Shown: positions 4,305-30,229, counted from the stretch's first letter. The stretch: DNA of 32,000 bases from Candidatus Uzinura diaspidicola str. ASNER (GCA_000331975.1 CP003263.1:30001-62000), one strand, 5' to 3'. The notes: a model not told the origin generated them from the letters alone. Made by a program: numbers and translations.

Positions 4305-4305
4305 T

Positions 4306-4386: not shown

Positions 4387-4429
4387 CATAGTATAAATAA
4401 AAAAAATCAGTATTAAAAATTAAGGACCA

Positions 4430-5269: not shown

Positions 5270-5308
5270 AGGTAGAAAAAAAACAAGAGGTAAAAACAGC
5301 TTCCAAAA

Positions 5309-8380: not shown

Positions 8381-9039
8381 AAGCACCGTCTATAGACTCT
8401 ATTAATTTTAATAAGTCTCTTGATGGCTTAGTTCCAGCCATTATTCAAGACTCTGATACACTAAAAGTATTGATGTTGGGGTATATGAATGAGGAAACTT
8501 ATTTAAGGAGTTTACAAAGTAAAAAAGTTATTTTTTACAGTAGATCTAAAAAAAGAGAGTGGATAAAAGGTGAAGAAACTTCTCATTCTTTAGTCATTAA
8601 AGAAATTTTTATAGACTGTGATAAAGATACTTTGTTAATTAAAGTAATTCCTTTGGGGCCTACTTGTCATCTAGGTACAAATAATTGTTGGGGAGACATG
8701 AATGAGGAATGCTATAGTTTTTTTAGAACCCTTGAGAAAATTATTTTTTTAAGAAGAAAAATAGAAGTAGGTATTCATAAGTCTTATATTAGAGATCTCT
8801 TTGAAAGGAGTATGAATAAAATTCTCCAAAAAGTTGGAGAAGAAGCTGTTGAACTTATTTTAGAAGCTAAAGAGAATAACAAAGAACGCTTTCTTAATGA
8901 AGCAGCTGATCTATTATTTCATTATTTAGTATTGCTTCAAGCTAAAAATTATAATTTAAAAGATATTCTAGATATTCTAAAAAAAAGAAAAAAACTTAAA
9001 ACCCTATTTTTTTTTAAGAGACCAAAGTCTATTTTTTAA
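8377..9039 (+). CDS. hisI: Bifunctional phosphoribosyl-AMP cyclohydrolase / phosphoribosyl-ATP pyrophosphatase
   Basis: 220-aa ORF. The HisI part has GLVPAIIQD, FYSRSKK..W.KGE, DCDKD and GPTCHLG..NCW. The HisE part has KVGEEAVE and EAADLLFHYLVLL. There is an ATGA overlap with hisF. Confidence 0.9.
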   Translation: MKAPSIDSINFNKSLDGLVPAIIQDSDTLKVLMLGYMNEETYLRSLQSKKVIFYSRSKKREWIKGEETSHSLVIKEIFIDCDKDTLLIKVIPLGPTCHLGTNNCWGDMNEECYSFFRTLEKIIFLRRKIEVGIHKSYIRDLFERSMNKILQKVGEEAVELILEAKENNKERFLNEAADLLFHYLVLLQAKNYNLKDILDILKKRKKLKTLFFFKRPKSIF

Positions 9040-9634
9040 TAGCATAGCTAGTGTAAGAGGCCCAACTTACCAAAAATACTTTTAAAGTATACATCTCCAA
9101 CTAAATTACACCCAGAATCATCTTCCAACTTAATAATTACCCCAACAATAACAAATAACAACAGTTCCTTTAGAAATCATATCCGCTTTTAAAAATCTTG
9201 GTGTATAACTATGATAACTATGTGTTAGTGTGCTATTTCTAGGATTAGATTTACGGTACATAAGCAATACTTAGATTCTTACCTAGAATTACTGTATGTT
9301 TTCCTTTTGGATGGATAGAAAGCTTCTATACTCAAAGCCATTTTTACTATATTTAAAGTATGAATATCATCTATAGAATCACCTTCATTGAGAAATGCTA
9401 GGAGGTAAACCAACACTTTGACAGTCTTTTATTTTTACATATAGTATTATTTCCTACTAATACAGCTACTAAATACGGAGAACGAAATCCTACTATTTTT
9501 ATTTTATCTACTTCCCTAGCAATTTCTTCCCTCATATTTAACGCTAGTGTCTTACCATAAAGAATCTTTGTCATCCTGCTTGTCATCCTGCTTGTCATCC
9601 TGCTTGTCATCCTGCTTGTCATCCTGCTTGTCAT
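9040..9634 (-). pseudogene. folD: Decayed methylenetetrahydrofolate dehydrogenase/cyclohydrolase (folD) remnant
   Basis: The N-terminal 78-aa ORF reads ...MTKILYGKTLALNMREEIAREVDKIKIVGFRSPYLVAVLVGNN (FolD-like). Downstream minus-strand frames give LLAFLNEGDSIDDIH, VNLILEIAH*HIVIIVIHQDF and KLEDDSGCNLVGDVYFKSIF, interrupted by several stops and frameshifts. Only about 595 nt remain, against about 880 nt expected. Confidence 0.75.
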
Positions 9635-9648
9635 CCTGCTTGCCTGCT
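9569..9648. repeat. Perfect 12-nt tandem repeat TGTCATCCTGCT x6, followed by a degenerate 8-nt copy
   Basis: Read directly from the sequence. The copies are at 9569, 9581, 9593, 9605, 9617 and 9629. On the minus strand the unit is AGCAGGATGACA, which contains an ATGA start/stop overlap. Confidence 0.97.
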
Positions 9649-10386
9649 TAAATGTATAAATTGTTGTACAGAAAGTTGCTCAGCTCTTTTATCAAGAATT
9701 GGTATTTTATAAAAAGATTCAGAGAAATTCAAAGATTTCAGCGTATTGCGTAGTTTCTTTCGTCGTTGATTAAAGGATACTTTTACTATTTTAAACAATA
9801 CTGCATCATCCACCTTTTTGGTAACACCTGATTTTCTATGAAGACGAATTACAGAAGATTTTACTTTTGGATGAGGAAAAAAATAATTGTTGGGAACAGT
9901 AAAAATAGATTCTACTTCATAAAAAGCTTGTATAAGAACAGAGAGAATACCGTAAGTTTTGCTTCCAGCAGCAGAACGAATTCGTTCTGCGACTTCTGTT
10001 TGAAACATCCCAATTACTTCAGGGATAAATTTCCTATATTTCAGTAAATAAAATAAAATATTTGAAGAAATATTGTAGGGAAAATTGCCAATTAATGCAA
10101 AAGAAGATAACATAGGATTACATTGAAGAAAATCCATGTTAATGATACTATTTTTTAATGTAGGAAAGACTTTATGTAGATATTTTACTGATTCTGTGTC
10201 TATTTCAATAACAAAAAGATCATTAGTTCTATCTATAAGATATTGGGACATCATTCCCATTCCTGGTCCTAATTCAACTATAGAAGAATACCCTATAAAA
10301 GATAGGGTTTGAACAATTTTCTTAGCTATTTTTTCATCATGTAAAAAATGTTGACCTAAATATTTCTTTGGAAAAACTGTTAACAT
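9631..10386 (-). CDS. rsmA: 16S rRNA (adenine1518/1519-N6)-dimethyltransferase RsmA/KsgA
   Basis: 251-aa ORF with KKYLGQHFL, VELGPGMG and GNFPYNIS blocks. Its TGA stop lies in the repeat copy nearest the gene. Confidence 0.9.
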   Translation of the reverse strand: MLTVFPKKYLGQHFLHDEKIAKKIVQTLSFIGYSSIVELGPGMGMMSQYLIDRTNDLFVIEIDTESVKYLHKVFPTLKNSIINMDFLQCNPMLSSFALIGNFPYNISSNILFYLLKYRKFIPEVIGMFQTEVAERIRSAAGSKTYGILSVLIQAFYEVESIFTVPNNYFFPHPKVKSSVIRLHRKSGVTKKVDDAVLFKIVKVSFNQRRKKLRNTLKSLNFSESFYKIPILDKRAEQLSVQQFIHLSRQAG

Positions 10387-10484
10387 AATAAATCTTACAG
10401 AGAGATATGATTATTTTCATAAGTTTAATTGATCATTAATTATAGGGTTTTTAATTTTATCAAAAAGGAATATACTGTATTCAC

Positions 10485-12080
10485 CTAATGAATCATTAGG
10501 TAGGAGTAATTCTTTTTTTTTAAAAGCTTCCAAGGAAGAGCTTTTATTCTAAGCATTTTCATCATTCTTTCAGAAGTTCTAGGTAAAAAAGGCCCAGATA
10601 ATTGAGTAAGCATTCCAGATATTTGTAAAGAGATATATAATATGGTTTTTGTTCGCATGTAATCATGTTTATGTCTTTTCCATGGAGCTTCTTCCGAAAT
10701 ATATTTATTTCCCATTCTAGCAATTTTCATGAATTCGTTCAAGGCTTGTTTAAAGTGATAGTTTTCTATGAGTGACCCAATATTATCAGGTATTAATTGA
10801 AGAGTTTTAATAACTTTTCTATCTTTTTCTCTTAAAGTTGAAGGTGAAGGTACTATACCAAAAAAAAACTTTTTCGTAAGAATTAATGTACGATGTATAA
10901 AATTTCCTAATATTCCGACCAGCTCTGAATTATTTTGTATTTGAAAATCTTTCCAATTAAAGTTATTATCTTTATTTTCTGGCATTTTAGTTATTAGAAT
11001 ATATCTAAGTACGTCTTGTTGATTAGGAAATTCTTCTAAATATGCATGTAACCATACAGCCCAATTTCTAGAGGTAGATATTTTTTTGTTTTCTAGATTT
11101 AGAAACTCATTAGCATGAATATTTCTTGGTAGAATATAATCACCGTGTGCAATTAGCATTACAGGAAAAATAATACAATGAAATACAATATTATCTTTAC
11201 CAATAAAATTTATCAAAGAAGTACACTTATTCTTCCAAAAAATTTTCCAATTTTTTTTATTATTTATTGCCCATTCAATAGTAGATGATATATAGCCGAT
11301 AGGAGCATCGAACCAGACATAAAGAACCTTATTTTCTATCTCTTTGATTGGAACTGGTATTCCCCAATTTAGATCTCTAGTTATTGAGCGTGGCTTTAAT
11401 CCTCCTTCAATCCATGATTTATATTGGCTATATACATTGGTTTTCCAAAATTTTTTGGAAATACATTGTTTAAGAAATGCTTCATAATTTGGTAAGGGCA
11501 AGAACCAATGAAAAGTTTCTTTAAGAATTGGAGAGATTCCACTTAATGCAGACCTAGGAGAGATTAGCTCATTGGGACTAAGATAGATTCCGCATCTTTC
11601 GCATTGATCTCCAAAAGCTTTAGTATTTTTACAATAGGGACAAACCCCTAAAATATAACGATCAGCTAAAAACTGTCCTTCTTTCTCGTCATAAAATTGC
11701 TTAGATTCTTCTTCAATAATAAGATCTTTATGATAAAGCTCTTTAAAAAAAGAGCTAACTGTTTTATGATGTATCGATGAAGACGTTCTTGAAAAGTGAT
11801 CAAAAGAAATATTAAATTTTTCTAAACATTCCTTTATAATAGAATGATATTTATCTACAACTTCTTGCGTGCTTATACATTCTTTTTTAGATCGTAGTGT
11901 AATAGGGACTCCATGTTCATCAGATCCGCAAATAAAAATTACATCTTTCTCTTTTCGCCTAAGATAGCGAACATAGATATCAGTAGGGATGTAAACACCT
12001 CCTAAATGTCCTATATGAAGAGGACCGTTAGCGTATGGTAGTGCTGCTGTAATTGTATTATAATGATATTTTTCAGACAT
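10485..12080 (-). CDS. metG: Methionine--tRNA ligase, short form lacking a C-terminal tRNA-binding domain
   Basis: 531-aa ORF with the HIGH motif PYANGPLHIGH, zinc knuckle CPYC...CERCG and the KMSKS-equivalent KISTSRN. Confidence 0.95.
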   Translation of the reverse strand: MSEKYHYNTITAALPYANGPLHIGHLGGVYIPTDIYVRYLRRKEKDVIFICGSDEHGVPITLRSKKECISTQEVVDKYHSIIKECLEKFNISFDHFSRTSSSIHHKTVSSFFKELYHKDLIIEEESKQFYDEKEGQFLADRYILGVCPYCKNTKAFGDQCERCGIYLSPNELISPRSALSGISPILKETFHWFLPLPNYEAFLKQCISKKFWKTNVYSQYKSWIEGGLKPRSITRDLNWGIPVPIKEIENKVLYVWFDAPIGYISSTIEWAINNKKNWKIFWKNKCTSLINFIGKDNIVFHCIIFPVMLIAHGDYILPRNIHANEFLNLENKKISTSRNWAVWLHAYLEEFPNQQDVLRYILITKMPENKDNNFNWKDFQIQNNSELVGILGNFIHRTLILTKKFFFGIVPSPSTLREKDRKVIKTLQLIPDNIGSLIENYHFKQALNEFMKIARMGNKYISEEAPWKRHKHDYMRTKTILYISLQISGMLTQLSGPFLPRTSERMMKMLRIKALPWKLLKKKNYSYLMIH

Positions 12081-12142
12081 TTAACTATAAACTTACAAAC
12101 ATTTTTAGTGAAAATGATGATGAGTGAAGTCTTCTAATAGAA

Positions 12143-12255
12143 ATTGGGCAACTACTTACTCTCCCAGGGTTTACCAAGTACCATCAGCGCTAACGGACTT
12201 AACTTCTCTGTTCGGAATGGAAAGAGGTGATCCCCGCCGCATCACGCCACCCAAT
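12143..12255 (-). rRNA. rrf: 5S ribosomal RNA
   Basis: The reverse complement reads ATTGGGTGGCG...CCATTCCGAACAGAGAAGTTAAG...GGTACTTGG...GGGAGAGTAAGTAGTTGCCCAAT. Conserved 5S loop sequences are present and the terminal helix is complementary. Confidence 0.85.
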
Positions 12256-12299
12256 GACATTAATTTCTCCTATAGGAGTTTTAAAATATCTATCAATTA

Positions 12300-15195
<2,896 letters not shown>

Positions 15196-15218
15196 TTAAT
15201 AGATCTTATTTTAATAAG

Positions 15219-15292
15219 TGGAGAATACCGGGCTCGAACCAGCGACCTTCTGCGTGCAAGGCAGACGCTCTAACCAATTAAGCTAATCCCCC
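15219..15292 (-). tRNA. tRNA-Ala (anticodon UGC) in the rRNA spacer
   Basis: 74-nt cloverleaf. Sense strand GGGGGATTAGCTTAATTGGTTAGAGCGTCTGCCTTGCACGCAGAAGGTCGCTGGTTCGAGCCCGGTATTCTCCA. The G3:U70 identity pair is present. Confidence 0.95.
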
Positions 15293-15302
15293 GTTATTCA
15301 TG

Positions 15303-15375
15303 TAGTCCCGCGTGGAGTCGAACCACGGACAACTACATTATCAGTGTAGTGCTCTTACCACTGAGCTACGAGACT
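15303..15375 (-). tRNA. tRNA-Ile (anticodon GAU) in the rRNA spacer
   Basis: 73-nt cloverleaf. Sense strand AGTCTCGTAGCTCAGTGGTAAGAGCACTACACTGATAATGTAGTTGTCCGTGGTTCGACTCCACGCGGGACTA. Confidence 0.95.
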
Positions 15376-15422
15376 TCTAAACCTTATACTTTCCTTTGAA
15401 AAGAGAAAAAAACTTCTCTGAA

Positions 15423-16952
<1,530 letters not shown>

Positions 16953-17141
16953 AGTTTTAAAGTTTACCTATTTCAAAAGAAAATATAAGGCTTTTATAAG
17001 AATGTATAAATTAACTATTTACATATTAAAGATATGATTCTCTCTTCTAGAGAAGAGATAATTATAAATTATTTTTTTTTACCAAATTAAAATAATTAAA
17101 GATTCATTAAATTCATTTAATGAGAATAATTTTTAATAAAA

Positions 17142-18229
17142 ATGAATTGTTTTGAACAAATAGAAATAAAAACTTCAGATTTGAACTTTAAAATTCCATC
17201 AAAACTTATTGTTGAATACCCATCAAAAGAAAGAGATGAATCTCGTCTTATGGTTATTCATAGAAAAACAGGGAAGATAGAACATAAATTGTTTAAAGAC
17301 CTAATAAATTATTTTGATAAAGAAGATGTAATTATTTTAAATAATACAAAAGTTTTTCCTGCTATTTTGTACGGTTATAAAGAGCAAACAAAAGCTAAAA
17401 TAAAAGTATTTTTACTTAGAGTATTAGATAAAAAAAATAAGATTTTAGATGTCTTAGTAGAGCCAGCTAGAAAAATCCGTATTGGGAATAAAATTTTCTT
17501 CAGGAAAAAAACTCATAAATATAACTATAATTTAGTAGCTGAAGTCATTGATAATACAACTTCAAGAGGAAGAATATTACGTTTTCTTTCAGATCTTTCT
17601 TATGAAGAATTTCAAAAACAACTCTATGCTATTGGAAAAACACCACTTCCTAAATATATAAAAAGAGAAGTAGATAAAAAAGATATGGAACGTTATCAAA
17701 CTATCTATGCAAAAGAAGAAGGTTCTATTGTAGCTCCAGCAGCTGGGTTACATTTTTCTAAACATTTGTTAAAAAAATTAGAAATTAAAGGTATTTCACT
17801 AGCAGAAATTACTTTACATATTGGTTTAAGTGCATTTTCTTCAATAGAAGTAGAAGATTTATCTAAACATAAAATGGACTCGGAAAAAGCAAATATTAAA
17901 AATAATATTTGCAAAATAATTAATACAGCTATTGATAAAAAAAAGCGTATTTGTGCAGTAGGAAATAGTGTTATGCGTACACTTGAAACTACAGTTTCTG
18001 TAAGTAAGCATTTAAATCCTTTTGATGGGTGGACAAATAAATTTATATATCCACCTTATAATTTTAGTATTGCTAACTCTCTTATTTCTAACTTACATAT
18101 GCCTAAATCTACATCATTTATAATGGTCGCGGCTTTTATGGGTTATGACTTAACTATAAAAGCCTATCAAAATGCAGTAAAAGAAAATACAGGTTTTATT
18201 CCTATGGAGATGCTATGCTTATATTATAA
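17142..18229 (+). CDS. queA: S-adenosylmethionine:tRNA ribosyltransferase-isomerase, with a 1-nt frameshift 14 codons before the native stop (possible recent pseudogene)
   Basis: QueA blocks are present: [38 protein letters not shown] and [10 protein letters not shown]. The conserved C-terminus [14 protein letters not shown] is read in a different frame from 18185, with its stop at 18227-18229. The annotated ORF frame runs on to 18401. Confidence 0.8.
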
Positions 18230-18230
18230 A

Positions 18231-18960
18231 ATGATGAATGCAATTGAATACAAGACATTACATCAATATAAAATCTATGAAGAAATATGTAGTTCTATTT
18301 ATGATAGAAATGAAATTAAAGTAATACCTAAATGTTATTCATTATATAATGAAACGAAAAGGAAAACAAATACGTCCAATATTAATATTTCTTATTGCTA
18401 AAATGCTTGGAAAAATTACAGATAAAACATATAATACTGCCTATTTGATATAATTAATCTGCAACATTACTTCATGATGATATAGTAGATAATAGCCATA
18501 TACGACGTGGAAATTTATCAATCAATGCTCTATTGAAAAATAAAATAGCAGTTTTAGTAGGAGACTATCTTTTTCTACAAGTATGATAATTACTATAAAA
18601 TTGTGTTAAAAACTATAGTAAAAATGAGTTAAGGGGATTTACTTGAAATAGAGCAATACAAAAACATATTAAATATTACTGATAAACAGATAGTATTATC
18701 AGGAGGAGCGCATTCAATAGAAGCAAATAAGCATCTTTTTGGATTAGCATTTAAAAAAAAAGATGCTGACTATGAATATTATAATATTGGGAACCCATTA
18801 TCCCTTGATATTAGAAACTTTACCACTAATTATTACAAAACCCTGATTATTGATTCCATTAAAATCACAAAGATGATAAAAATAGAATACAAGAAATTAT
18901 AAATCTTACAAAAAATCTTTAAAACTAATGGTTGCCGTAAAATATAGATGATAGAAAAAA
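18231..18960 (+). pseudogene. ispB: Decayed polyprenyl (octaprenyl-type) diphosphate synthase
   Basis: [33 protein letters not shown] runs from 18349 and is followed by an in-frame TAA at 18451. After a frameshift comes LLHDDIVDNSHIRRGNLSINALLKNKIAVLVGDYL, the first Asp-rich motif, from 18467. Further downstream is FGLAFKKKDADYEYYNIGNPLSLDI, a degenerate second Asp-rich motif, at about 18737. There are multiple stops. The 3' boundary is uncertain and converges with the ccsA remnant. Confidence 0.8.
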
Positions 18961-19930
18961 AAATAATATTTAGATAGAACATACATAAAATAATATGAAT
19001 AGGATCATCTTTTGCCTGACACCTTAATAAATCATTAAGATAGATGAAAGAGCATTTAGCTATTATACTAATCAATGCCCATGTTTCTTTTAGATCCCAA
19101 CTTTGCCCTTTTTCCTCCTAAATAAGGACCGATAGTAAGAAAAAATAACCATAATAAAAGATCCTTTCCCTGATTGAAAAAACCTATGCCTTATAATCAA
19201 GAATATTATTCATGTATACACGTATTTTTTTTTCTATATTTCTATCGACAACTGTCAATTCACTAGAAAAGAGGAGGGAAGATAAGATCCAGGAAATGTA
19301 AGAAAAAAGGAATATTAAAAAACTGGACCATATGCAATAGTAACAGGTTCATTTACAAATTGCTCCAATCCGATAGATTGGGCTCTAATATGTACTTTTG
19401 AGGTATACCATTATAAATAGAACCATTTTTTACTGAAGACAAAATAGTATACTTTACTTTTTATTAGTAAGTACATATAATATATGTTATTTTTAGATTA
19501 TCTTTGTTTAATATAATTTTCTATATTTCCATGTGAACCTATAGGAACTATTTTAATAAACTGTTTACCATTAGAGTTCTCTATAAAATAGTTTTTAGCA
19601 TCCTTGTACTTTAATACATGCATCTTTAAATTGTTATGTAAAGGGTAAATAAGAACTTTTATATTTCCATCATCCATTTGAAGAAATATAAAAGTAAATC
19701 TCTTCTTTAATAGACATTATACCCTCAAACCCCGTTCCACCAATAAAAAGTAATATAAAAGAAAAATAAAATATAAGTAAAGGGAATTTTTCTTTTTAAG
19801 AAGACGATAGCCATAGCCTCCTATATTTTAAAAATAGACTCATAAACTAAATATTTAGCTATGTCGGTAGTGTAAATTATTCTCAATAAAAATACCAACT
19901 ACACCTTCTTTTCTATTAGTTATTCTCCAT
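18930..19930 (-). pseudogene. ccsA: Heavily deleted cytochrome c biogenesis protein (ResB/CcsA fusion type) remnant
   Basis: Minus-strand frames give TDIAKYLVYES (N-terminal ResB-like), GGTGFEGIMSIKEE (19700-19741) and the near-canonical CcsA Trp-rich motif GQSWDLKETWALI (19070-19108; consensus WG.YWSWDPKE.WAL). There are many stops and frameshifts. About 1 kb is left of a gene normally about 3 kb long. Confidence 0.6.
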
Positions 19931-19935
19931 TTACT

Positions 19936-20277
19936 TTAAAAAGGTAAATCATCATAGATTACATTAGAAGAATAGGTAGGCATAGAAGATATTGGGACTT
20001 TACTTTTTATTTTTTCTATTTGCCAACCTTGTATATAATTAAAATATTTTCTGATTCCTTCAGAATTTATCCATTCCCTTCCCCTAATATTTATAGATAT
20101 TTTTATATAATCGTTGATTTTTAAACCATTTAAAAGATAAATTTTCTCTTGTAAAAACTCAATCAATAAATGTTGAGGATATAAGTCATCAGTAAGAATC
20201 ACTAATTCTCTTTTTCTAAAACCACTAGAAAAAGTTTGAGTATCAAGAATTTTTTTTATTTTTCCTGAAATTTTCAT
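19936..20277 (-). CDS. DUF3127-like small OB-fold protein with an SSB-type C-terminal DDLPF tip
   Basis: Intact 113-aa ORF: MKISGKIKKILDTQTFSSGFRKRELVILTDDLYPQHLLIEF...NIRGREW...YFNYIQGWQIEK, ending ...YDDLPF. The pattern matches my recollection of Bacteroidetes DUF3127 proteins. Confidence 0.7.
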   Translation of the reverse strand: MKISGKIKKILDTQTFSSGFRKRELVILTDDLYPQHLLIEFLQEKIYLLNGLKINDYIKISINIRGREWINSEGIRKYFNYIQGWQIEKIKSKVPISSMPTYSSNVIYDDLPF

Positions 20278-20318
20278 AATAATAAAATATACTTCTTTTT
20301 TTAGATAATAATTTCTTA

Positions 20319-20645
20319 TTATTCTAGTTCTAGTTGAAAACTAGCTTCTTCACTTAACATATCAGTCCTCCAAATAGGATCAAAAGTCAATATAATATCT
20401 ATAGATTTAACCTTATCTATAGTTTGTATTTTTTGTTTTACTTCTTTAATAAAATTATCTGCAACAGGACAATTAGGTGTAGTAAGTGTCATGGTTACTT
20501 TTATATGGGCCTGTTGACTGATTTGAATATCATATATCAGTCCTAATTCATAAATATTTACTTCTATCTCGGGGTCATAAATAGATTTGAGAAGTTCTAT
20601 TACTTTCTCAATTAAGTTTTGTTTTTTAATTTTTACAGAAACCAT
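20319..20645 (-). CDS. sufT: Fe-S cluster assembly protein SufT (DUF59/MIP18 family)
   Basis: Intact 108-aa ORF with the DUF59 signature IYDPEI.VNIYELGLIY...TMTLTTPNCPVA. Confidence 0.75.
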   Translation of the reverse strand: MVSVKIKKQNLIEKVIELLKSIYDPEIEVNIYELGLIYDIQISQQAHIKVTMTLTTPNCPVADNFIKEVKQKIQTIDKVKSIDIILTFDPIWRTDMLSEEASFQLELE

Positions 20646-20785
20646 TTCTATATGAATTCTTTTAAAGTTAAGAATATTTTTCTTACATATCCTATTAATT
20701 TTACCATTGCACGCATAAATTTTATATAACTAATTATCAATGAAGTTCAGTACTTAACCTTGTTTTAATAACTTTTCTATAGAAG

Positions 20786-21340
20786 ATGAATAAAAAAATA
20801 AAATTATTTGTAAGGTTTTTTTTCCTTATTTCAACTTTTCTATATTTTTATAGCACAGGAAGGAAATATAGAAAATGGTTCTCTTTTATTTAAAAGAAAT
20901 TGTACTTCTTATCATTCTATTGACTATTGATCTTACTAAGAAACTAATTGGACCTCCTCTTTCTGAATTACAGAGAAAAGAAATATAAATTGGCTTCATA
21001 AAGATATTAAAGAAAAATAGAAACAACAGAAAAATTACTTGAAAAAGATTTTATAAAGTTCATTATTATTGGTTTTTCGATTCGAACCTATTGATAGATG
21101 GGATATACCTTATCCTTTTATACATAATTGAATTGCCCTTTAAGTATGATGGAAGGAAAATATATTGAAGATGGAAAAAACAAATATAAAGCCTTTAATG
21201 TAGGTTGCAATTTAAATATACGTCATTATTCAACGTATACTTTATCTATAGAGCTTATCATGGAGATATTAAAAAAATGGATAAATGGGTATAAATTATA
21301 TAGAGAATTCAGTGTTTCTAAAATGTAATTAAACTTGAAA
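20786..21340 (+). pseudogene. actA: Alternative complex III cytochrome c subunit (ActA-like) remnant
   Basis: A signal-peptide-like MNKKIKLFVRFFFLISTF is in one frame. The cytochrome c domain AQEGNIENGSLLFKRNCTSYHSIDY* is in another, with CxxCH mutated to CTSYH and a stop at 20928. A multihaem remnant FIYRAYHGDIKKMDKWV (CxxCHG changed to YRAYHG) lies at 21247-21264. Confidence 0.65.
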
Positions 21341-21469
21341 AAGTAAATAATATACATGAATTTGCGTGTATTACTATAGAAATTTATTTAAATATACCAA
21401 AGAAATATGAAATGAAGAAGAACAAATTGAGACATATAAAGGAAAGAACGTGATAGATCAAAAGGTCAT

Positions 21470-21990
21470 CATTTTAATTTGATAATTGTTTTCCTGTATT
21501 GGCTGTGGCAAAATTGCATGTTTTTGTAGTTGGAAAGAATGAAGAGTTGATCGTTATTAATATTAGCTAAACATGGTTTTTCTCAACATAGAATGTTCTA
21601 TGACACCTGAAATGTATTTTAATCCAATAGTTATTTTTCAGCCTGTGTCAACATTGTTCCAATGCTCCATGCGAAACAATATGTCCGGTAGGTGCAATAT
21701 CTCATGGAGGACACAATACGAGATGCTAATAACTGTCCTTATAAAGTTCGTAGTTTTAATTGGTTTAAGAAATAATGATATTGAAAGAATGATATATAGT
21801 CCTGATGTTGTATTAAGAAGTAGGGGTGTAATGGAAAAATGATTTAAAAGAAGGAAGAAAATTAAAAGATGAAGAATTTCAGCCTTCTTGTACTAAGGCA
21901 ATAATTTTTGGAGATATTAACGATAATGAAAGTAAAATTTACGAGAAGATTAAAGAGAATAGAAGTTATAACCTTCTAAATTTTCTTCTT
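21470..21990 (+). pseudogene. actB: ACIII Fe-S subunit (ActB) remnant. Only the ferredoxin-like C-terminal domain is recognisable.
   Basis: Recognisable blocks are CIGCGKIACFCSWKE (21495), CQHCSNAPCETICPVGAISH (21646), NNCPYKVRSFNWF (21728), SPDVVLRSRGVMEK (about 21798) and IIFGDINDNESKIYEKIKENRSYNLL (21901). They are spread over three reading frames with stops. The roughly 700-aa molybdopterin-like N-terminal domain is essentially absent. Confidence 0.75.
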
Positions 21991-21992
21991 TT

Positions 21993-22745
21993 ATGAAGAC
22001 CCTTTCAGCATTTTTATGGGGTTCTATAATAACTGGAATAGGTGTTTGGGGGGTAAATAGAACTATAAATTGGGCATGGGATATTACTAATTTTGTATGA
22101 TGGGTTGGAATTGTTCATATTGTTCAGGAATATTGATTTATGCAGTACTTTTAGCGTCTCTCAGCAGAGGGACAATTTTTTCTGTGATTCAGGCCTTATT
22201 ATGTCCTCTTTTATGTTATTGCGATAAGATACTTCTTTTTCAATATCTACTGTCTTTTGATTCCTTGGCAATTATTTGAAGAATTATCTCTTGTATTAGC
22301 AGGATTATGCGCTCCTTTTTGTTTCTTTTGATTTTGCAACTTCAATTATTAAACTCTCCTTATTTTGTAGATGGAGCGGCACAGGGGTTGCATCTTTTAG
22401 ATGTCGTTAGGAAAGTTCTTAGAAGATTAGTTCCTGGTATTCATGTAGCCCCTTTGAAGATTTTACTTATTTTTCTACAGGGCCTTTTTGGTGGGCTTCA
22501 TTATTTGTAATGTACTTATTCCTCAATTGTTTAAGAAGGTCATATTATTTTATTAATTTTGGAATGTGGTTTAAACGTTTTGATATTATTGTTATAAATC
22601 TAAGTCATGATTATGCCATATTGTACTGAATTTTTACCTTCTTTTATAGATATAGGAATTTTTATAGGTAGTTTTTTCTTTGTACTATATCTTATTTATG
22701 CCCGTACTTTTCCTGTAATTGCTCAATCATAGTTAAAAACTATAG
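21993..22745 (+). pseudogene. actC: ACIII NrfD-like membrane subunit (ActC) remnant
   Basis: MKTLSAFLWGSIITGIGVWGVNRTINWAWDITNFV is followed by TGA at 22098-22100, where homologues have Trp, and then WVGIVH. Later blocks are GLCAPF...FDFATS-like, GPFWWASLF and FGMWFKRFDIIVINLSHDY (22561-22620). There are several frameshifts. Confidence 0.75.
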
Positions 22746-22762
22746 TAAAATAACAAAAAAAG

Positions 22763-23100
22763 ATGAGAAAGAAGACTACTACAGTGATTTATAGAAAATC
22801 CCGGTTCCATTATTTGGAACTGCTTTAGTATATATTACTTGATTGGCCTCAAGATATTGGTGGAAAAATATTGGTGGAAAAAGCCTGCCTTAATCTTAAT
22901 TTCCCATCCTTTATTCCTATTATATTTTAACTCACTATATTTTTTTTTATGTGTATAACCTACTTGATAATCTTCTCCAAGGAGCCAAATCCTCGAAGAT
23001 TAAAAAGTTTGTGAATAAAGATAAGGTGCCAAAGAAGTGATTATAAAAGAGTTTCCTTCATGAATATTATATATATTATAGTGATTTATAAGAAATTATA
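22763..23100 (+). pseudogene. actD: ACIII DUF3341 subunit (ActD) remnant
   Basis: MRKKTTTVIY... is followed by LDWPQDIGGK (22841-22867) and, after a frameshifting 14-nt tandem duplication, NFPSFIPIIF (consensus DWP.NIGGKP...PAFIPVTFE). The remnant is truncated. Confidence 0.55.
22854..22881. repeat. Perfect 14-nt tandem duplication ATATTGGTGGAAAA x2
   Basis: Read directly. Copy 1 is 22854-22867 and copy 2 is 22868-22881. It sits inside the actD remnant, and its length is not a multiple of 3. Confidence 0.95.
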
Positions 23101-23470
23101 TACGAGAAGAGTTTATATGACAGAGATATATTATTCTATTCAGATACGTCCTTTTGGATATTTCACGTACGGAAAACCAAATACTTACCTATACTTTACC
23201 TAATTTTAATAAAGGATTAGGTTGCATCATTAAAAATTACTGAATCACCTTTAGATTACTTTGATATTGAAAGAGGAAAATCCATGTATAAAATAAATTG
23301 CGCTATTTGTCATGGAGATAATGGACAAGGAGAATTAGTTAATACTGAAAAAATTCTTGGTGTTCTAGACTATAGGCAGTGTATGGGAAAAAGGGGATAT
23401 ATGGTTCAGAACTAATACAAGAATACCTATGGTAAATAGCAGAATATGTAGATTAAAAAATATGTTCCTA
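23100..23470 (+). pseudogene. actE: ACIII monohaem cytochrome c subunit (ActE) remnant
   Basis: SPLDYFDIERGKSMYKINCAICHGDNGQGELVNTEKILGV has an intact CxxCH at 23299-23313, but it is flanked by stops and frameshifts. No full-length ORF is present. Confidence 0.6.
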
Positions 23471-24144
23471 AATAATCATAGGGCTTTTCTCCAATAGTTA
23501 TTGGACAAACAGTTTATTTTCACCCTTCATATCATCAAACTTTTTTAGATAAAGCACATAATCGTCCCGCTAGGATAGCGTTTTATATGGGTAAAATATT
23601 ATTTCACTGGGATTTCTTTAGGCGCATTCTAGTAATTCAATATATAGGGGAATTATAGTAAGTAATGTGATAGAAGGGATTATCACTTTTCCTTATTTTC
23701 TTAATATTTCTTATACCTTCTTACCTCTTCTATATATTACTGTATGGACATTTTTTATGTTGTGGATGAGTACTATATCAGTATTATTTATTTCTTTTTT
23801 TTCTATTAGGTGGAAGTGGGGAATGAGTCTAGAATCTTTTGGATGGTATGTATTAGTAAGTTATTGGGTGTGTTTTTGCTCTTAACAAAGTCATAGTATT
23901 TACTACTAGTTTATGTAATGGATATATTTGTGGTTTTCACAATTATTACTTTATTGGTATGGAAATATTCCTGAAGAAAGGTCCTATTTTATTAAACGTG
24001 CATTTAATCTTTGATGATTCCTATGATTTTAGGAATTCCATTTTTAGGACACATGATAGATATATATTTTTGGCGTTTACTATTGTAGGCAGCTTATTTA
24101 TTTTTATTGTCTATAGGAGTATTAGAAGCTTTCAACTGCCCTAA
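23470..24144 (+). pseudogene. actF: ACIII membrane subunit (ActF) remnant
   Basis: The fragments are FGWYVLVSYWVCF (consensus FGWYVFSGMW) and WIYLWFSQLLLYWYGNIPEERSYFIKR (23919-24000; consensus YLWFSQFMLIWYSNIPEE.TYF). They are in different frames with stops. ORFs 23667..23885 and 23959..24144 are pieces of it. Confidence 0.7.
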
Positions 24145-24190
24145 CGACTAAAGAAACCCACTATGTAATGAAAGTGCAATTGTATATTTT

Positions 24191-24601
24191 TTATTGAAAA
24201 TAAATAGCGTACTTTTTTATAGCTCTAAACATAGCCTCAATTCCATTAGCTCTATTAGAAGTAAGAAAAGAAGAAAACCCAATTTTCTCTATAAAAAGAG
24301 GAGTGTTATGAATGATTTCATAAGGAAATTGTCCAGAATATATACGTAACATTAAAGCAGCAATCCCTTTAGGGACGAGAGCATCACTATCAGCATGGAA
24401 AAATATTTTATTAAATTTTATATAAGCACGCAACCAAACTTTAGATTGACAACCAATAATAATATTATTATTAGTTCTTAAATTCTTAGACCTTTTAGGA
24501 AGTTTTTTCCCTAAAAAAATAAGATATTCATAACGCTCTTCCCAACTTTCGATGAATAAAAACTCATCAATAACTTTTTGTATATTTTCTTTTATACACA
24601 T
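24191..24601 (-). CDS. sufE: Cysteine desulfuration (sulfur acceptor) protein SufE
   Basis: 136-aa ORF with the SufE active-site block IIGCQSKVWL and the DSDALVPKGIAAL block. Confidence 0.85.
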   Translation of the reverse strand: MCIKENIQKVIDEFLFIESWEERYEYLIFLGKKLPKRSKNLRTNNNIIIGCQSKVWLRAYIKFNKIFFHADSDALVPKGIAALMLRIYSGQFPYEIIHNTPLFIEKIGFSSFLTSNRANGIEAMFRAIKKYAIYFQ

Positions 24602-24636
24602 TTCTCTACCGAATCTAATAATCTAATGATAGTTAG

Positions 24637-26457
24637 TCACGTTATCGTTAATAGCCTATAAACCTCAGTAATAATTTCACTAGTAGTAAACGGTCTTCCT
24701 TGTATTTTATAAAAAGATACTACATCTACAAGAAATTTATCACGAATAATATGAATTAGTTGACCGCCATTAAGTTCAAATACTATAACTTTTTTATAAT
24801 CTTGAAACAAGGTTTCAAGGCCTTGAGGCAGAGGAGATAGGTAGTCTATATGGGAATGTGCAACTCTTTTTTTTTCCTTGATAAGGGTTTTCATAGTCCC
24901 TCTAATGATTCCGTAAGTTGAGCCCCAACTTAATAACAATATTTTTCCAGGTCTTACTCCTGAATCAATGGTTTGTAACGGTAATCTATCTTGAATAAAA
25001 TCCATTTTTATTTTTCTTAAGGAAATCATTTTTTCATGATTTTTAGGGTCGTAAGAGACATTCCCTGTTTTATTTTCCTTTTCAAGCCCTCCAATACAAT
25101 GTTCAGAAAAAGCCATTCCAGGGAATCCCCAATTTCTTACCGCCCTTTCATTTCTTTCATAAGGTAAAAAGTTTTTTTTGTTAGCAAAAGGGGGATAAAT
25201 TGAATCTAGCTGAGATAGATTTGGAAAACGCCATATTTCAGAACCATTAGCTATATATATGTCACTTAACAATATAACGGGGGTCATATGTTCTATAGAA
25301 ATTTTAGCTGCTTGGAAAGCCATCTCAAATGCATGAGAAGGGGAATGAGGAGCTAACACTGGCATAGGAGTTTCACCATTCCGTCCATAAATTGATTGAA
25401 AAAGATCGCTTTGTTCAATTTTTGTTGGTAAGCCTGTTGAAGGACCTCCCCGTTGTACATTAATTATTACTAGAGGTAATTCTAACATAAAAGCTAGTCC
25501 TATCCCCTCTTGTTTAAGAGCCATGCCTGGTCCGGAAGTTCCGCTAACGCCTAATGATCCTGCAAAAGATGCACCAATAGCAGAAGTAATTGCAGCAATT
25601 TCATCTTCCGCTTGAAAACTCTTAACACCTAAATTTTTATATTTAGAAAAATGATGTAAGATATCTGAAGCCGGTGTAATAGGATATCCAGCATAGAAGA
25701 GCCCAATCTGTGCTTGAACAGATGCTGCCGACAATCCAAGAACAATAGCTTGATTTCCTTTTATATTTCTATAATTTCCTGAAGGGAATATAGCTGATTT
25801 TATTTTTAATATTTTTGTAGAACTTTTTTTTCCAAAGTTAAATCCTGCTCTTAAGACGATTAAATTAGCTTTTAAGAGCGTTGGATTCTTTTTAAGATTT
25901 TTTTTTAAAAAACATTCTGTATATACAAGAGTGCGTTTGAAAAGCCAATAAACAAAACCCAATGCAAACATATTTTTAGTAATATTCTTATATTTTCCAA
26001 TATTAGTATTTTCAGTATGCATTAATATATCTATTGGATATAAAGTATAAGCTGATATCTCTTTTAAAAGATTAAAACTATCTTGATAACCTGCCTTTTT
26101 TAAATTATTTAGAGAAAATCCAGAAGTATTTATAATAATAATACCTTTTTTTTTAAAAATGGAATATATTTTTTTTAATGCTGATGCATTCAAGACTACT
26201 AATACATCATAACAATCTCCGGGAAAAGAGATTTCTACACTACCAAAATTAATTTGAAACCCGGAGATTCCTGAAAGGAATCCAGTGGGAGCACGAATTT
26301 CTGCTGGAAATTCTGTAAACGTACTTACATCATTACCAATAAAAGAAGAAGTCTTAGTAAATTGACTTCCAACAAGTTGCATACCATCTCCAGAGTCTCC
26401 TGCAAATAATATCGTTATTTCTTCAAGGGGTTCAAAAGTTTTACTTAATTTTTTCAA
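24637..26457 (-). CDS. korA: 2-oxoglutarate/2-oxoacid:ferredoxin oxidoreductase, alpha subunit
   Basis: 606-aa ORF with N-terminus ILFAGDSGDGMQLVGSQFT and TEFPAEIRAP, then GYPITPASDI, GTSGPGMALK and QRGGPSTGLPTK blocks. Confidence 0.9.
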   Translation of the reverse strand: MKKLSKTFEPLEEITILFAGDSGDGMQLVGSQFTKTSSFIGNDVSTFTEFPAEIRAPTGFLSGISGFQINFGSVEISFPGDCYDVLVVLNASALKKIYSIFKKKGIIIINTSGFSLNNLKKAGYQDSFNLLKEISAYTLYPIDILMHTENTNIGKYKNITKNMFALGFVYWLFKRTLVYTECFLKKNLKKNPTLLKANLIVLRAGFNFGKKSSTKILKIKSAIFPSGNYRNIKGNQAIVLGLSAASVQAQIGLFYAGYPITPASDILHHFSKYKNLGVKSFQAEDEIAAITSAIGASFAGSLGVSGTSGPGMALKQEGIGLAFMLELPLVIINVQRGGPSTGLPTKIEQSDLFQSIYGRNGETPMPVLAPHSPSHAFEMAFQAAKISIEHMTPVILLSDIYIANGSEIWRFPNLSQLDSIYPPFANKKNFLPYERNERAVRNWGFPGMAFSEHCIGGLEKENKTGNVSYDPKNHEKMISLRKIKMDFIQDRLPLQTIDSGVRPGKILLLSWGSTYGIIRGTMKTLIKEKKRVAHSHIDYLSPLPQGLETLFQDYKKVIVFELNGGQLIHIIRDKFLVDVVSFYKIQGRPFTTSEIITEVYRLLTIT

Positions 26458-26525
26458 AATTAAAGTGTTTTAACCATACTAGCCAAAACAATCGCTAAAG
26501 TATATTTCCCTTTTCCCACCTTAAT

Positions 26526-27935
26526 TTATATTACTTTTCTAGTTATAGGAGAAAGAGTATATATTTTATTAGATGCTTCTCTAATGGCTTCTGAGAAAGT
26601 AGGATGAGGATGTGAAATATGTGCGATTTCTTCAGATGTTGCTCCAAATTCCATAGCTACTGCTACTTCCATTATCATGTCAGATGCACGCGAACTTATA
26701 ATATGACATCCTAATATTTCGTCTGTATTTTTATCAGATAGAATTATAACAAATCCATCTAGATCGCCACTGACTCTACTCCGACCAAGAGATCGCATAG
26801 GAAATTTACCAATATTGTACGATCTCCCTTCATCTCTTAGTTGTTCTTGATTTTTTCCTACAGAAGCTACTTCTGGTCCTGTATATACAACAGAAGGAAT
26901 GAGAGAATAATTTATATATGGTTTATGTCCTGCTATATGTTCAACGACAAAGAGTCCCTCTTTTTCCGATTTATGCGCTAACATTTGGCCTCCAATTACA
27001 TCTCCTATTGCATAAATATTGTTAGAAACAGTCTGTAACTTTTCGTTTACTGGAATAAAATCATTCGTTTTAAGAAAAACGCCAATATTTTCTAACCCAA
27101 GATCTTTAGTATAGGGCATTCTTCCTATAGCAACTAAAACGTAATCACCAATCAATGTATTAACTTCAGATAAGTTATTTTTTATACAAACTACTACTTC
27201 TTTTATATTGACTTTGACACTTTTAACTGTAGAAGAAAGGTAAAAATCTATTCCCAATAGATAGAGAATCTTATGTATTTCTTTACAGACATAAATATCC
27301 ATAGAAGACAGAATTTGATCACAAAACTCAATAAGACTTATTTTACTACCTAGACGACAGTACACTGAAGCAATTTCTACTCCTGTTACGCCACCTCCAA
27401 TGATAATAAGGTGATTAGGAATCTCTTTCAGAGATAGAGCTTCAGTAGAACTAATAATTCTTTGTTTATCTATCCTAAAAATAGGACTATCAACAGCCTT
27501 AGATCCAGTAGCAATAATGGCATTATTAAAAATAACTGATTGTAATTTTTCTTTTTCTAAAGTAAATAAATAGAGTGTGTTAGAATTTTTAAAAGTAGCT
27601 AATCCTTGAAATATGTCAACTTTATTTCTATTCAGTAGATATTTTATTTCTTTAGAAATACTATGTATTATTTTATTTTTTCTATGAATCATTTGATAAA
27701 AATCAAGTATAACATCACTTACAAAAATTCCATGTTTTGAAAATTTTTTATCAAGCTTATAATAATAGTATGAAGATTCTAATAAAGCTTTTGTGGGTAT
27801 ACAGCCCCAATTTAAACAAATACCTCCTAATTTTTCTTTTTCTATTATAGCAGTTTTAAATCCTAGCTGCGCTGCTCTTATAGCAGCGACATAACCTCCA
27901 GGACCAGAGCCTATAATTACTAAATCAAAATCCAT
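26526..27935 (-). CDS. lpdA: Dihydrolipoyl dehydrogenase (E3)
   Basis: 469-aa ORF with FAD-binding DLVIIGSGPGGY, redox disulfide GGICLNWGCIPTK, NAD-binding IIGGGVTGVE and the C-terminal HPHPTFSE interface motif. Confidence 0.95.
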   Translation of the reverse strand: MDFDLVIIGSGPGGYVAAIRAAQLGFKTAIIEKEKLGGICLNWGCIPTKALLESSYYYYKLDKKFSKHGIFVSDVILDFYQMIHRKNKIIHSISKEIKYLLNRNKVDIFQGLATFKNSNTLYLFTLEKEKLQSVIFNNAIIATGSKAVDSPIFRIDKQRIISSTEALSLKEIPNHLIIIGGGVTGVEIASVYCRLGSKISLIEFCDQILSSMDIYVCKEIHKILYLLGIDFYLSSTVKSVKVNIKEVVVCIKNNLSEVNTLIGDYVLVAIGRMPYTKDLGLENIGVFLKTNDFIPVNEKLQTVSNNIYAIGDVIGGQMLAHKSEKEGLFVVEHIAGHKPYINYSLIPSVVYTGPEVASVGKNQEQLRDEGRSYNIGKFPMRSLGRSRVSGDLDGFVIILSDKNTDEILGCHIISSRASDMIMEVAVAMEFGATSEEIAHISHPHPTFSEAIREASNKIYTLSPITRKVI

Positions 27936-28017
27936 AAAAAAAATTATTTTATTTTAATAATTAAAATTCTTGTACATTTTCAATGAAAAAAAAATGCTAC
28001 TTAAATAAAACTTCAAT

Positions 28018-28917
28018 ATGAAAAGAATTTTTGGCACAGGGGCTGCACTTATTACGCCTTTTAATGAGAAAAACAAAATAGACTATAAAAGTCTTGAAAA
28101 ATTAGTAACTCATATAAATATAGGTTCTGTAGATTATCTAGTATTATTAGGTAGTACCTCAGAACCAAGTTCTTTAAAAAGCAAAGAAAAAAACAATATT
28201 ATTGATTTTATACAATCAATAAATCATCATGATCTACCTATTATTTTAAGTATAGGTGGAAATAATACAGAATGTATTATTGAACAAATAAAAAACATAA
28301 AAGATTCTAATTTTGAGGCTATACTTTCTGTTTCTCCTTATTATAATCGTCCTTCTCAAGAAGGAATTTATCAACATTTCAAAAAAATAGCAGAAAGTAT
28401 ACAAAAAAACATTGTATTATATAATGTTCCATCTAGGACTGGATCAAATATTTTACCTGAAACTGTACTTAGATTAGCTCAAGAATATGGTAATATAATT
28501 GGAATTAAAGAGGCATCTGGAAGATTATTCCAAAGTTATGAACTTATTAATAATAAACCTAAAGAATTCAGTGTTATTTCTGGAGATGATGCCTTAGCAT
28601 TACCAATAACTTTAAGTGGAGGAGAAGGTGTAATTTCAGTACTTGCGCAAGCAATTCCACAAATATTTTCCAATATGATTGATAATTCTTATGATAATAA
28701 AATTAATAAAGTCTTTGAATCTTATTATCATATTTATAATTTAATAAATTCTTTGTCTAAAGAGGTAAATCCAACAGGAATTAAATATTTTTTAAAATTA
28801 CTAACAATTTGTAAACTATATGTACGATTACCTCTTATAAAAGCTTCCAAAGAATTAAAAGTTAAAATAAAAACTCTATATAACAGATATATAGAAATAA
28901 CCTCTATATTATATTAA
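28018..28917 (+). CDS. dapA: 4-hydroxy-tetrahydrodipicolinate synthase
   Basis: 299-aa ORF with GTGAALITPF, LYNVPSRTG and the Schiff-base lysine block IGIKEASG. Confidence 0.9.
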   Translation: MKRIFGTGAALITPFNEKNKIDYKSLEKLVTHINIGSVDYLVLLGSTSEPSSLKSKEKNNIIDFIQSINHHDLPIILSIGGNNTECIIEQIKNIKDSNFEAILSVSPYYNRPSQEGIYQHFKKIAESIQKNIVLYNVPSRTGSNILPETVLRLAQEYGNIIGIKEASGRLFQSYELINNKPKEFSVISGDDALALPITLSGGEGVISVLAQAIPQIFSNMIDNSYDNKINKVFESYYHIYNLINSLSKEVNPTGIKYFLKLLTICKLYVRLPLIKASKELKVKIKTLYNRYIEITSILY

Positions 28918-28921
28918 TAAC

Positions 28922-29227
28922 ATGAATTTTGCGAATTTTCAAATATCTTTTTCTACAGAAACTATTGATAGAAAAGAATTAGAAAAATATGAAAATAATA
29001 TTTATGCTATTATAAATATTTTAGGTAAGAGAAGTATTCAAATAAACAGTGCAATTAAGGCGGAGTTAGATAAAAAACTGGAAGAATTTTATCTCTATAA
29101 TGATTCTTTATATGATAATTTAGAAAATAAAGAACAAATAACAATAGCAAAATTTTATGAATCTCTTCCTAAACCTACTGCTATAGCTATTCAAGAATTT
29201 CTTGATGGTAATATTATGTATAGATAA
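28922..29227 (+). CDS. rpoZ: Probable Bacteroidetes-type RNA polymerase omega subunit (small conserved protein)
   Basis: 101-aa ORF. NIYAIINILGKRSIQINSAIKAELDKKLEEF...ENKEQITIAKFYESLPKPTAIAIQEFLDG resembles my recollection of flavobacterial RpoZ (N.YE....SKRA.QIN...ENKEQIE.SKFYE.LPKP). Not verified by search. Confidence 0.55.
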   Translation: MNFANFQISFSTETIDRKELEKYENNIYAIINILGKRSIQINSAIKAELDKKLEEFYLYNDSLYDNLENKEQITIAKFYESLPKPTAIAIQEFLDGNIMYR

Positions 29228-29239
29228 CAACTTAAAAAG

Positions 29240-29313
29240 TAGCGTGAGGGAGATTCGAACCCCCAACCTTCGAATTATGAAGCCGATGCTCTAACCAACT
29301 AAGCTATCACGCC
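29240..29313 (-). tRNA. tRNA with anticodon CAU (elongator Met or lysidine-modified Ile2; not initiator-like)
   Basis: Sense strand GGCGTGATAGCTTAGTTGGTTAGAGCATCGGCTTCATAATTCGAAGGTTGGGGGTTCGAATCTCCCTCACGCTA. It folds into a cloverleaf with a TTCATAA loop. It lacks the three G:C pairs in the anticodon stem and the 1:72 mismatch typical of initiators. Confidence 0.85.
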
Positions 29314-30229
29314 TAATTTGTTTTTGCCAAAAAGGCTTTAGTTTCCCTTCTAACTGGCATTCTAAAATTAATAAATATCCTTCCTTAATAAAAATTTTAT
29401 TTTCTTCTACGGTTCCAATATTTTTTGGATGGTGTTCAAAACTATAATACGCACGATAAATTTTAAATTCTTTTTTTTTAAACATATTCTCTTCTAATAT
29501 CGACAAAGAACCAGGGAATGGACTAAGTCCTCGAATCTTATTATAGATCTCTTTAAGAGTTGCTTTCCAGTTTATTTTAGTATCAACCCTTAATAACTTA
29601 GGTGCAAGATTAAAATTTGTAGTTTGTTCTTTAGGTGCTATACAATTATAAAAAATACATTTAATAGTATTAACTATTAGATAAGCTCCTATTTCCGATA
29701 ATCTTATCGACAAAGAACCAGCATTTTCTGCCATTTCAATACTTATTTTCTTTTGTAAGAGCATCCTTCCCGTATCTATTTTTTCATCTACTCTAAAAAT
29801 AGATATACCTGTTTTAGTATCGCCATTCATAATCACCCAATGGATAGGTGCAGCTCCTCTATAATTTGGTAATAAAGAAGGATGTAAATTAAAGCTACCA
29901 AATATTGGTATATTCCAAACAATTTTAGGTAACATACGAAAAGCTACGATAATGCATATTTCAGTATGCCATTTTTGTAACGTTTCTAAAAAAAGATAAT
30001 TTTTCAAATCATCAGATTGTAAAATAGGCAATGCATGAAGTCTAGAATATTTTTTTATAGCTGATTCTACAAAAAGCTTTTTGTTCCTGACAGAAAATCT
30101 GTCAGTAGTAGTTACTACACCTAATACGTTATATTTATATTTCAATAAATTTTCAATACTTAAAACAGAAAAATATGAAGTTCCCATAAATATTATTCTT
30201 CCATCATTAATATTATTAACATTTAACAT
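29291..30229 (-). CDS. fmt: Methionyl-tRNA formyltransferase
   Basis: 312-aa ORF with IIFMGTSYFS, the catalytic block NLHPSLLPNYRGAAPI and a C-terminal Fmt_C-like domain. The last 7 codons and the stop overlap the tRNA-CAU gene. Confidence 0.9.
   Translation of the reverse strand: MLNVNNINDGRIIFMGTSYFSVLSIENLLKYKYNVLGVVTTTDRFSVRNKKLFVESAIKKYSRLHALPILQSDDLKNYLFLETLQKWHTEICIIVAFRMLPKIVWNIPIFGSFNLHPSLLPNYRGAAPIHWVIMNGDTKTGISIFRVDEKIDTGRMLLQKKISIEMAENAGSLSIRLSEIGAYLIVNTIKCIFYNCIAPKEQTTNFNLAPKLLRVDTKINWKATLKEIYNKIRGLSPFPGSLSILEENMFKKKEFKIYRAYYSFEHHPKNIGTVEENKIFIKEGYLLILECQLEGKLKPFWQKQIRRDSLVG

Follow-up and report, generated by a model that had tools for sequence, protein, structure and literature searches.

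The window, a 32,000-nucleotide stretch of the genome of Candidatus Uzinura diaspidicola str. ASNER, contains a block of approximately 6 kb in which ispB, ccsBA, and actA–F remain only as broken remnants around two intact genes, sufT and a gene of the DUF3127 family. The host of this flavobacterial endosymbiont is the armoured scale Aspidiotus nerii. Its genome is 263,431 bp in size, with a GC content of 30.2%, 227 coding sequences, 7 pseudogenes, and 89.3% coding DNA (PMC3971599, Table 1). A further table of the same paper gives cytochrome c, the cbb3 oxidase, NADH dehydrogenase, and ATP synthase as missing from the genome (PMC3971599, Table 3).

The window is AT-rich, with a GC content of ~28–30% throughout except for the rRNA operon at 12143–16952. 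Coding density is 91% in 1–18226, 11% in the block itself (18227–24190), and 97% in 24191–30229. No open reading frame (ORF) of 114 or more residues is found in 18402–24190, and the DUF3127 gene and sufT are the only two that exceed 100 residues there. The initial annotation had described a block about 85% non-functional between flanks nearly free of non-coding DNA; that figure is slightly low if anything. Both the tabulated genome statistics and the other 26 kb of the window, where coding density is 91–97%, argue against a similar pseudogene density across the whole genome. The flanking genes read normally with translation table 11. The features of the locus are collected in the following table.

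Genes and gene remnants at the degraded locus, in window coordinates
Feature	Position	Strand	Match or extent
queA, tRNA preQ1(34) S-adenosylmethionine ribosyltransferase-isomerase	17142–18226	+	NCBIfam NF001140, E 7.5e-110
ispB pseudogene, polyprenyl diphosphate synthase	18234–18933	+	~700 bp left of ~1000 bp; best E 5e-54
ccsBA pseudogene	18863–19877	−	~1 kb left of 3.1 kb; tblastn
DUF3127 gene, intact	19936–20277	−	PF11325, 88 bits
sufT-type iron-sulphur (Fe-S) cluster assembly gene (DUF59/FeS_assembly_P), intact	20319–20645	−	PF01883, 61 bits (cut-off 23.5)
actA pseudogene, multihaem cytochrome c subunit of alternative complex III	20783–21285	+	tblastn frames 2/3/1/2/1
actB pseudogene, Fe-S/molybdopterin-like subunit	21281–21987	+	tblastn residues ~584–923 of 942
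actC pseudogene, NrfD-like membrane subunit	21990–22750	+	seven tblastn fragments in all three frames, E 1e-24 to 1e-35
actD pseudogene	22832–23060	+	tblastn E 3e-12 to 4e-13, three frames
actE pseudogene, monohaem cytochrome c subunit	23015–23450	+	L009 ActE tblastn E 1e-29, frames 2/3/1/3
actF pseudogene, second NrfD-like subunit	23530–24187	+	L005 ActF tblastn E 8e-25
sufE, intact flanking gene	24191–24601	−	NF006792, E 2.6e-28
korA, flanking gene beyond sufE	24637–26457	−	

The remnants were mapped by tblastn with the proteins of three relatives that carry the genes intact (L005, L009, and L013). All eight are colinear, their strand and order are as expected, and each is broken by frameshifts and deletions. 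These searches bear out the gene identities proposed in the initial annotation. The ispB remnant is divided into five segments in frames 3/1/2/3/1, with at least four frame changes, and 71–84% of its residues can still be aligned. At the DNA level it contains ~14 deletions, a +1 insertion at nt 77, and three to five reference-frame stops depending on the alignment. The region of the first aspartate-rich motif, LLHDDIVDN, is still readable, and the FQIKDD region now reads FKKKDAD. An intact IspB ORF of ~330 residues with both aspartate-rich motifs is absent from the window.

The gene originally called ccsA corresponds by its sequence to ccsBA, a fused ResB and CcsA gene of ~1045 residues in relatives. 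The intact gene in relatives is a single ORF of 1037–1049 residues that carries PF05140 and PF01578. What is left in the window is split over three frames and matches residues ~55–414 and ~911–1044 alone; the stretch ~415–918 is missing. The window thus has no single intact ORF combining the ResB and CcsA (Cytochrom_C_asm) domains of a System II protein.

The act genes encode alternative complex III (ACIII), and those of relatives match the Pfam families Cytochrom_C/C7, Fer4_x, NrfD, ActD, and Cytochrome_CBB3. The window remnants match all six genes of the colinear operon in order. None of them retains an uninterrupted frame: each is spread over two or three frames, with 31–85% of the residues alignable. 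In actA, ~55% of the residues are alignable within 503 bp, compared with 1.3 kb for the intact gene. Only about the C-terminal third of actB is kept, a deletion of ~2.1 kb having taken the N-terminal part (~580 residues). L013 ActF aligns over the full extent of the actF remnant in three frames. The act genes of the window are pseudogenes, and no functional ACIII is encoded by them.

As a check for intact copies elsewhere in the same genome, a search of 5.8 billion proteins with the ActB of an intact relative returned no protein from the window's genome among the best 120 matches, all at least 51% identical to the query. The matches are orthologues from Uzinura-like bacteria, Blattabacterium, Karelsulcia, and Bostrichicola.

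The ancestral state of the locus is preserved in relatives, whose contigs were gathered through homologues of korA and DUF3127. After one identical match, the korA product finds metagenomic proteins of 78–90% identity and then Candidatus Walczuchella at 62–64%. Five Uzinura-like lineages (L002/L005/L006, L009, L011, L012, and L013) carry full-length ORFs in the order korA–sufE–actF–actE–actD–actC–actB–actA–sufT–DUF3127–ccsBA–ispB–queA–16S rRNA. Because five relatives carry this order intact, the ancestor already had the eight dead genes side by side, enclosing sufT–DUF3127. The clustering of pseudogenes noted in the initial annotation is therefore real, but it reflects inherited synteny, and there is no sign of a special process of localised destruction. 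The functional coherence of the block holds as first described: a quinone tail, cytochrome c maturation, and a quinol:cytochrome c oxidoreductase form one physiological module that is dying together.

Two sets of comparators were set aside. A scan with sufT in species-representative contigs recovered only a distant Cytophagales locus (L001, 46% identity), which is uninformative, and the Walczuchella loci L003 and L004 serve for a side observation only since they are non-syntenic on the relevant side. An exact-match query with the window's own sufT gave no record.

The surroundings of the block also vary. A ParA/Mrp-type gene (PF10609) lies between lpd and korA in L002 (9304–9987), where the window has a 68-bp spacer (26458–26525). 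In L007, a 710-bp gap between lpd and sufE (6084–6793) contains neither the PF10609 gene nor korA. Gene loss around the block is lineage-dependent as well.

Four lineages carry the locus in a degraded state, namely the window, L007/L008, L014/L015, and L016/L017, and the decay differs in each of them. The distance between sufE and sufT is 8171–8609 bp in the intact lineages, compared with 3545 bp in the window, 2441 bp in L007, and 1648 bp in L014. The corresponding distances between DUF3127 and queA are 4112–4423, 1709, 2172, and 241 bp, respectively. Less than half of the ancestral 12.5 kb survives in the window, and its act operon is 57% deleted (3545 versus ~8200 bp). In L007/L008, actF, actE, and actD are largely retained, as are the end of actC, ~1 kb of ccsBA, and a broken, nearly full-length ispB; actA, actB, most of actC, and korA are missing. 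In L014/L015 the act debris amounts to 1.6 kb, and ccsBA and ispB are almost wholly gone. L016/L017 retain short actA and ccsBA remnants. Beyond DUF3127 and the ccsBA remnant, these two carry mnmE in place of ispB and queA (L016 1043–2401; L017 1807–2121), which suggests that the junction was rearranged or underwent a large deletion.

The gene next to the block, queA, is in a different condition. It is 84–88% identical to the genes of relatives (tblastn) and has 352 codons in frame. As the initial annotation had recognised, its 3′ end is frameshifted. A 1-bp deletion near 18185, located in GTAAAAGAA(A)AATAC at ~18183–18188 within an A-rich run, shifts the last 14 codons. The called ORF consequently runs on to 18401 and, as an alignment with the 3′ ends of six relatives shows, the conserved C-terminus is displaced. 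The conserved C-terminus and its stop codon are still encoded downstream of the deletion in the shifted frame. The lesion is therefore either very recent or a sequencing error, and on this sequence queA should not be counted with confidence as a pseudogene.

For queA alone, with its single-base deletion in an A-rich run ahead of perfectly conserved coding sequence, a sequencing error or rescue by transcriptional slippage could apply. Extended to the block as a whole, an explanation by sequencing or assembly errors, an alternative genetic code, programmed frameshifting, or slippage is scarcely credible. More than half of the ancestral cluster is physically gone, including the N-terminal ~580 residues of ActB and CcsBA residues ~415–918. 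Each remnant contains several frame changes, the neighbouring genes use the standard bacterial table without difficulty, and similar decay is present in three independently assembled relatives from other samples.

The intact genes in and beside the block are under purifying selection. sufT, DUF3127, and sufE are full-length ORFs with 65–87% identity to their orthologues (79–84% for sufE), and they are unbroken in all nine lineages. The ratio of non-synonymous to synonymous substitution rates (dN/dS) is 0.13–0.24 for sufT, 0.3–0.63 for DUF3127, 0.27–0.37 for sufE, and 0.13–0.21 for queA. The proposal that the three genes are intact and that selection acts here gene by gene is thus upheld, the four eroding lineages having kept sufT and DUF3127 while erasing different parts of the pseudogenes.

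By contrast with the intact lineages, the act remnants evolve almost neutrally, as expected under relaxed selection. Over the operon codons that can still be aligned, the ratio of the proportions of non-synonymous and synonymous differences (pN/pS) is 0.72 between the window and L007, 0.83 between the window and L014, and 1.03 between L007 and L014, compared with 0.23–0.39 in the intact lineages. For ispB, pN/pS is 0.585 between the window and L007 and 0.14–0.28 among intact pairs.

Could the remaining DNA persist because it has acquired a new, non-coding function, such as a regulatory RNA, promoters, or signals for replication or segregation? One part of the block would fit this: a stretch of ~150–250 bp adjoining sufT (about 20646–20900) is well conserved between the window and L017, as a promoter or 5′ region still in use would be, and it may hold the promoter of sufT–DUF3127. 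As an account of the block, a new function is very improbable. Rfam matches in the window are limited to rRNA and tRNA genes, with no family inside 18227–24190. The window and its closest relative, L017, share 92% nucleotide identity in sufT–DUF3127, yet they can be aligned for just ~250 bp past sufT, and alignments forced farther out give 53–68% identity. The subset of remnants kept differs from lineage to lineage. In base composition, the remnants (GC 0.26–0.28) show no shift from the intact orthologues (0.24–0.29).

The mode of decay is apparent from the act remnant. Its alignment with four intact operons contains ~75 deletion runs and 13 insertion runs, counts that are approximate since such alignments fragment. 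The remnants contain short perfect tandem duplications (8–14 bp), and actA has a 7-nt duplication. Replication slippage, building up in DNA that is no longer functional, would leave such marks. A tandem-repeat search of the block found short duplications of this kind and no repeat element. Perfect or near-perfect tandem duplications are seen at 22854–22882 and 21769–21795 in the window (14 bp, two copies), and the ispB remnant of L007 contains TATTAGAA in three copies.

To ask whether the genes were lost once or several times, a neighbour-joining tree was built from concatenated QueA, SufE, SufT, and DUF3127 sequences (at most 729 amino-acid columns, midpoint root). The four degraded lineages form one clade with 88% bootstrap support, within which the window and L017 group at 100%. 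A seven-taxon tree groups the window with L007 at 99.5%. The comparison with relatives suggests that the loss is confined to one Uzinura sub-clade. Some lesions are also shared. The +1 insertion at ispB nt 77 is common to the window and L007, L007 and L014 have actA deletion starts and boundaries in common, and the window and L014 share two deletion starts. Two further act lesions that had appeared to be shared, −6 at reference nt 5717 and −1 at nt 6234, proved to be insertions specific to the L013 reference and were discarded.

A competing history is parallel inactivation, in which the four degraded lineages each lost act, ccsBA, and ispB separately after they had diverged. The large deletions are indeed wholly different: some part of each of the six act genes is still present in the window, L007 is without actA, actB, and the bulk of actC, and L014 has almost no ccsBA or ispB. 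The short alignable distance between the window and L017, despite their close identity in the intact genes, and the pN/pS values below 1 that involve the window also fit separate losses. However, the degraded lineages are monophyletic, the L007–L014 pair has a pN/pS of 1.03, and the ispB frameshift and deletion starts are shared. Four separate losses of the same eight genes in one clade and none outside it would moreover be unparsimonious. We consider parallel inactivation unlikely. The most economical account of the sequences is that selection was relaxed once, at the base of the sub-clade or close to it, and that each lineage has since been eroding independently.

Taken with the conserved gene order, the block is very probably the decaying remnant of an ancestrally contiguous cluster, queA–ispB, ccsBA, and actABCDEF around sufT–DUF3127, slowly eroded after respiration was lost in the ancestor of the sub-clade. 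The presumed trigger is the loss of aerobic respiration in the ancestor of one Uzinura sub-clade. Selection on ispB (quinone side chain), ccsBA (cytochrome c maturation), and actA–F (ACIII) would then have relaxed at about the same time. Erosion would have proceeded by many small and a few large deletions with occasional slippage duplications, independently in each descendant lineage. Only deletions lying wholly inside dead DNA would persist, the embedded essential genes limiting their size. Removal of the block in one step would be prevented because it is interrupted or bounded by the selected genes sufT, DUF3127, sufE, and queA.

Several points weigh against a single ancestral loss followed by such erosion. 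Nearly all lesions are lineage-specific, and the few shared ones lie in A/T-rich runs or at ambiguous alignment positions, where homoplasy is possible. The grouping of L007 with L014 has 56% support, and the trees are midpoint-rooted neighbour-joining trees of no more than 729 columns. The pN/pS values of the window against other degraded lineages stay below 1 (0.72–0.83, and 0.585 for ispB); the window lineage may have been partly constrained in the past, or the codons that can still be aligned may be the conserved ones. The limit that embedded essential genes would set on deletion size is one we infer, and the absence of further respiratory genes from ASNER is taken as reported in a published table (PMC3971599).

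A role in Fe-S assembly would account for the survival of sufT and sufE: the genome still has korA and further Fe-S enzymes. The TIGR02945 model scores the sufT product at 124 bits, under its equivalog cut-off of 143, so that the SufT assignment stands at the level of the family (PF01883).

Pfam keeps DUF3127 as a family of unknown function. The AlphaFold2 model of the window protein (predicted local distance difference test score, pLDDT, 82) consists of a five-stranded barrel resembling an oligonucleotide/oligosaccharide-binding (OB) fold, one helix, and a disordered linker (residues 97–108). In a Foldseek search of the PDB, nearly all of the top 50 matches are bacterial single-stranded-DNA-binding proteins (SSBs), the others being PriB and mitochondrial SSB, with E values of 1e-5 to 7e-4 and template modelling (TM) scores of ~0.5. 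Sequence identity to the solved SSBs is just 10–16%. PHROG 4932, annotated as 'single strand DNA binding protein', matches the full-length protein with an E value of 5.6e-32. The C-terminus ends in an acidic tip, DDLPF, in which LPF is invariant and the second aspartate is more than 90% conserved across 23 homologues. This tip resembles that of Escherichia coli SSB, DDDIPF. Three marks of the SSB type are thus combined in the protein, namely a predicted OB fold, a linker that is disordered in the model, and an acidic tip ending in (I/L)PF, and it looks like an SSB-type single-stranded-DNA-binding protein. A predicted role in replication or repair would explain its retention.

Elsewhere in the window, a 591-bp gap between hisIE and rsmA (9040–9630) contains a 78-residue ORF on the minus strand (9398–9634) whose product weakly resembles the N-terminal ~40 residues of FolD (E 6.7e-6). 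The folD-like fragment is probably another eroded pseudogene and is the sole further candidate remnant within the window. A 363-bp gap between rsmH and the RNase E/G gene (2427–2789) is free of ORFs and unusually long for these flanks. A 101-residue ORF after dapA (28922–29227, plus strand) has a sub-threshold match to Rpb6/omega (PF01192, E 5e-5) and may be rpoZ.

The act remnants of the window are orthologous, subunit by subunit and in the same order, to the act operons of Blattabacterium, Karelsulcia (Sulcia), and Bostrichicola, and the ActB of an intact relative shares 56–63% identity with the ActB proteins of these three. ActB is kept even in the 245-kb genomes of Karelsulcia but lost from the 263-kb genome of Uzinura ASNER. 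Walczuchella, the sister flavobacterial symbiont of giant scale insects, likewise has a tiny genome with energy-metabolism pseudogenes (PMC3971599, PMC12188211). In the genome published in 2014, atpABG of Walczuchella are pseudogenes, and the electron transport chain, including the oxidase, is given as present (PMC3971599). Decay in Walczuchella was thus first reported in ATP synthase, whereas the window shows the quinol:cytochrome c segment in mid-decay, the rest being already gone. Beside korA in the Walczuchella loci L003 (4293–8987) and L004 (870–3526), the ORFs with E1-E2 ATPase, COX1, FixO, FixP_N, and cytochrome c domains are all short, which suggests that the cbb3 oxidase region is fragmenting in these strains.

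In the published account of the ASNER genome, as tabulated, the respiratory functions are given as absent (PMC3971599); here, remnants of the module are seen at the locus itself. A literature search, with the original 2013 ASNER genome paper outside its reach, found no comparison of Uzinura genomes for respiration. In the accessible literature, that paper aside, the pseudogene cluster, its ancestral synteny, the intact lineages, the degraded clade, and the graded decay series are undescribed.

We lean towards the view that Uzinura is polymorphic for aerobic respiration, the whole chain having been lost once in the sub-clade of the window (at least four lineages) while at least five lineages keep ACIII, CcsBA, and IspB. 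If so, decay could be followed as a natural time series through the four degraded lineages, with 43%, 30%, 20%, and nearly 0% of the DNA left, and deletion rates and spectra could be measured from it in a genome of ~260 kb. Close relatives that respire could likewise be set against those that do not, to ask how such symbionts gain their energy.

The process is ordinary reductive evolution in an obligate endosymbiont, whose loss of respiration is already on record in the published table (PMC3971599). The window alone adds little to it; the comparative decay series is a modest and unsurprising, though useful, addition. Several independent snapshots of one locus could calibrate the half-life of pseudogenes and the spectrum of deletions in tiny genomes. 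The locus illustrates extreme genome reduction, in which a dispensable module decays in place over a long time by many small deletions and the indispensable genes are left as islands.

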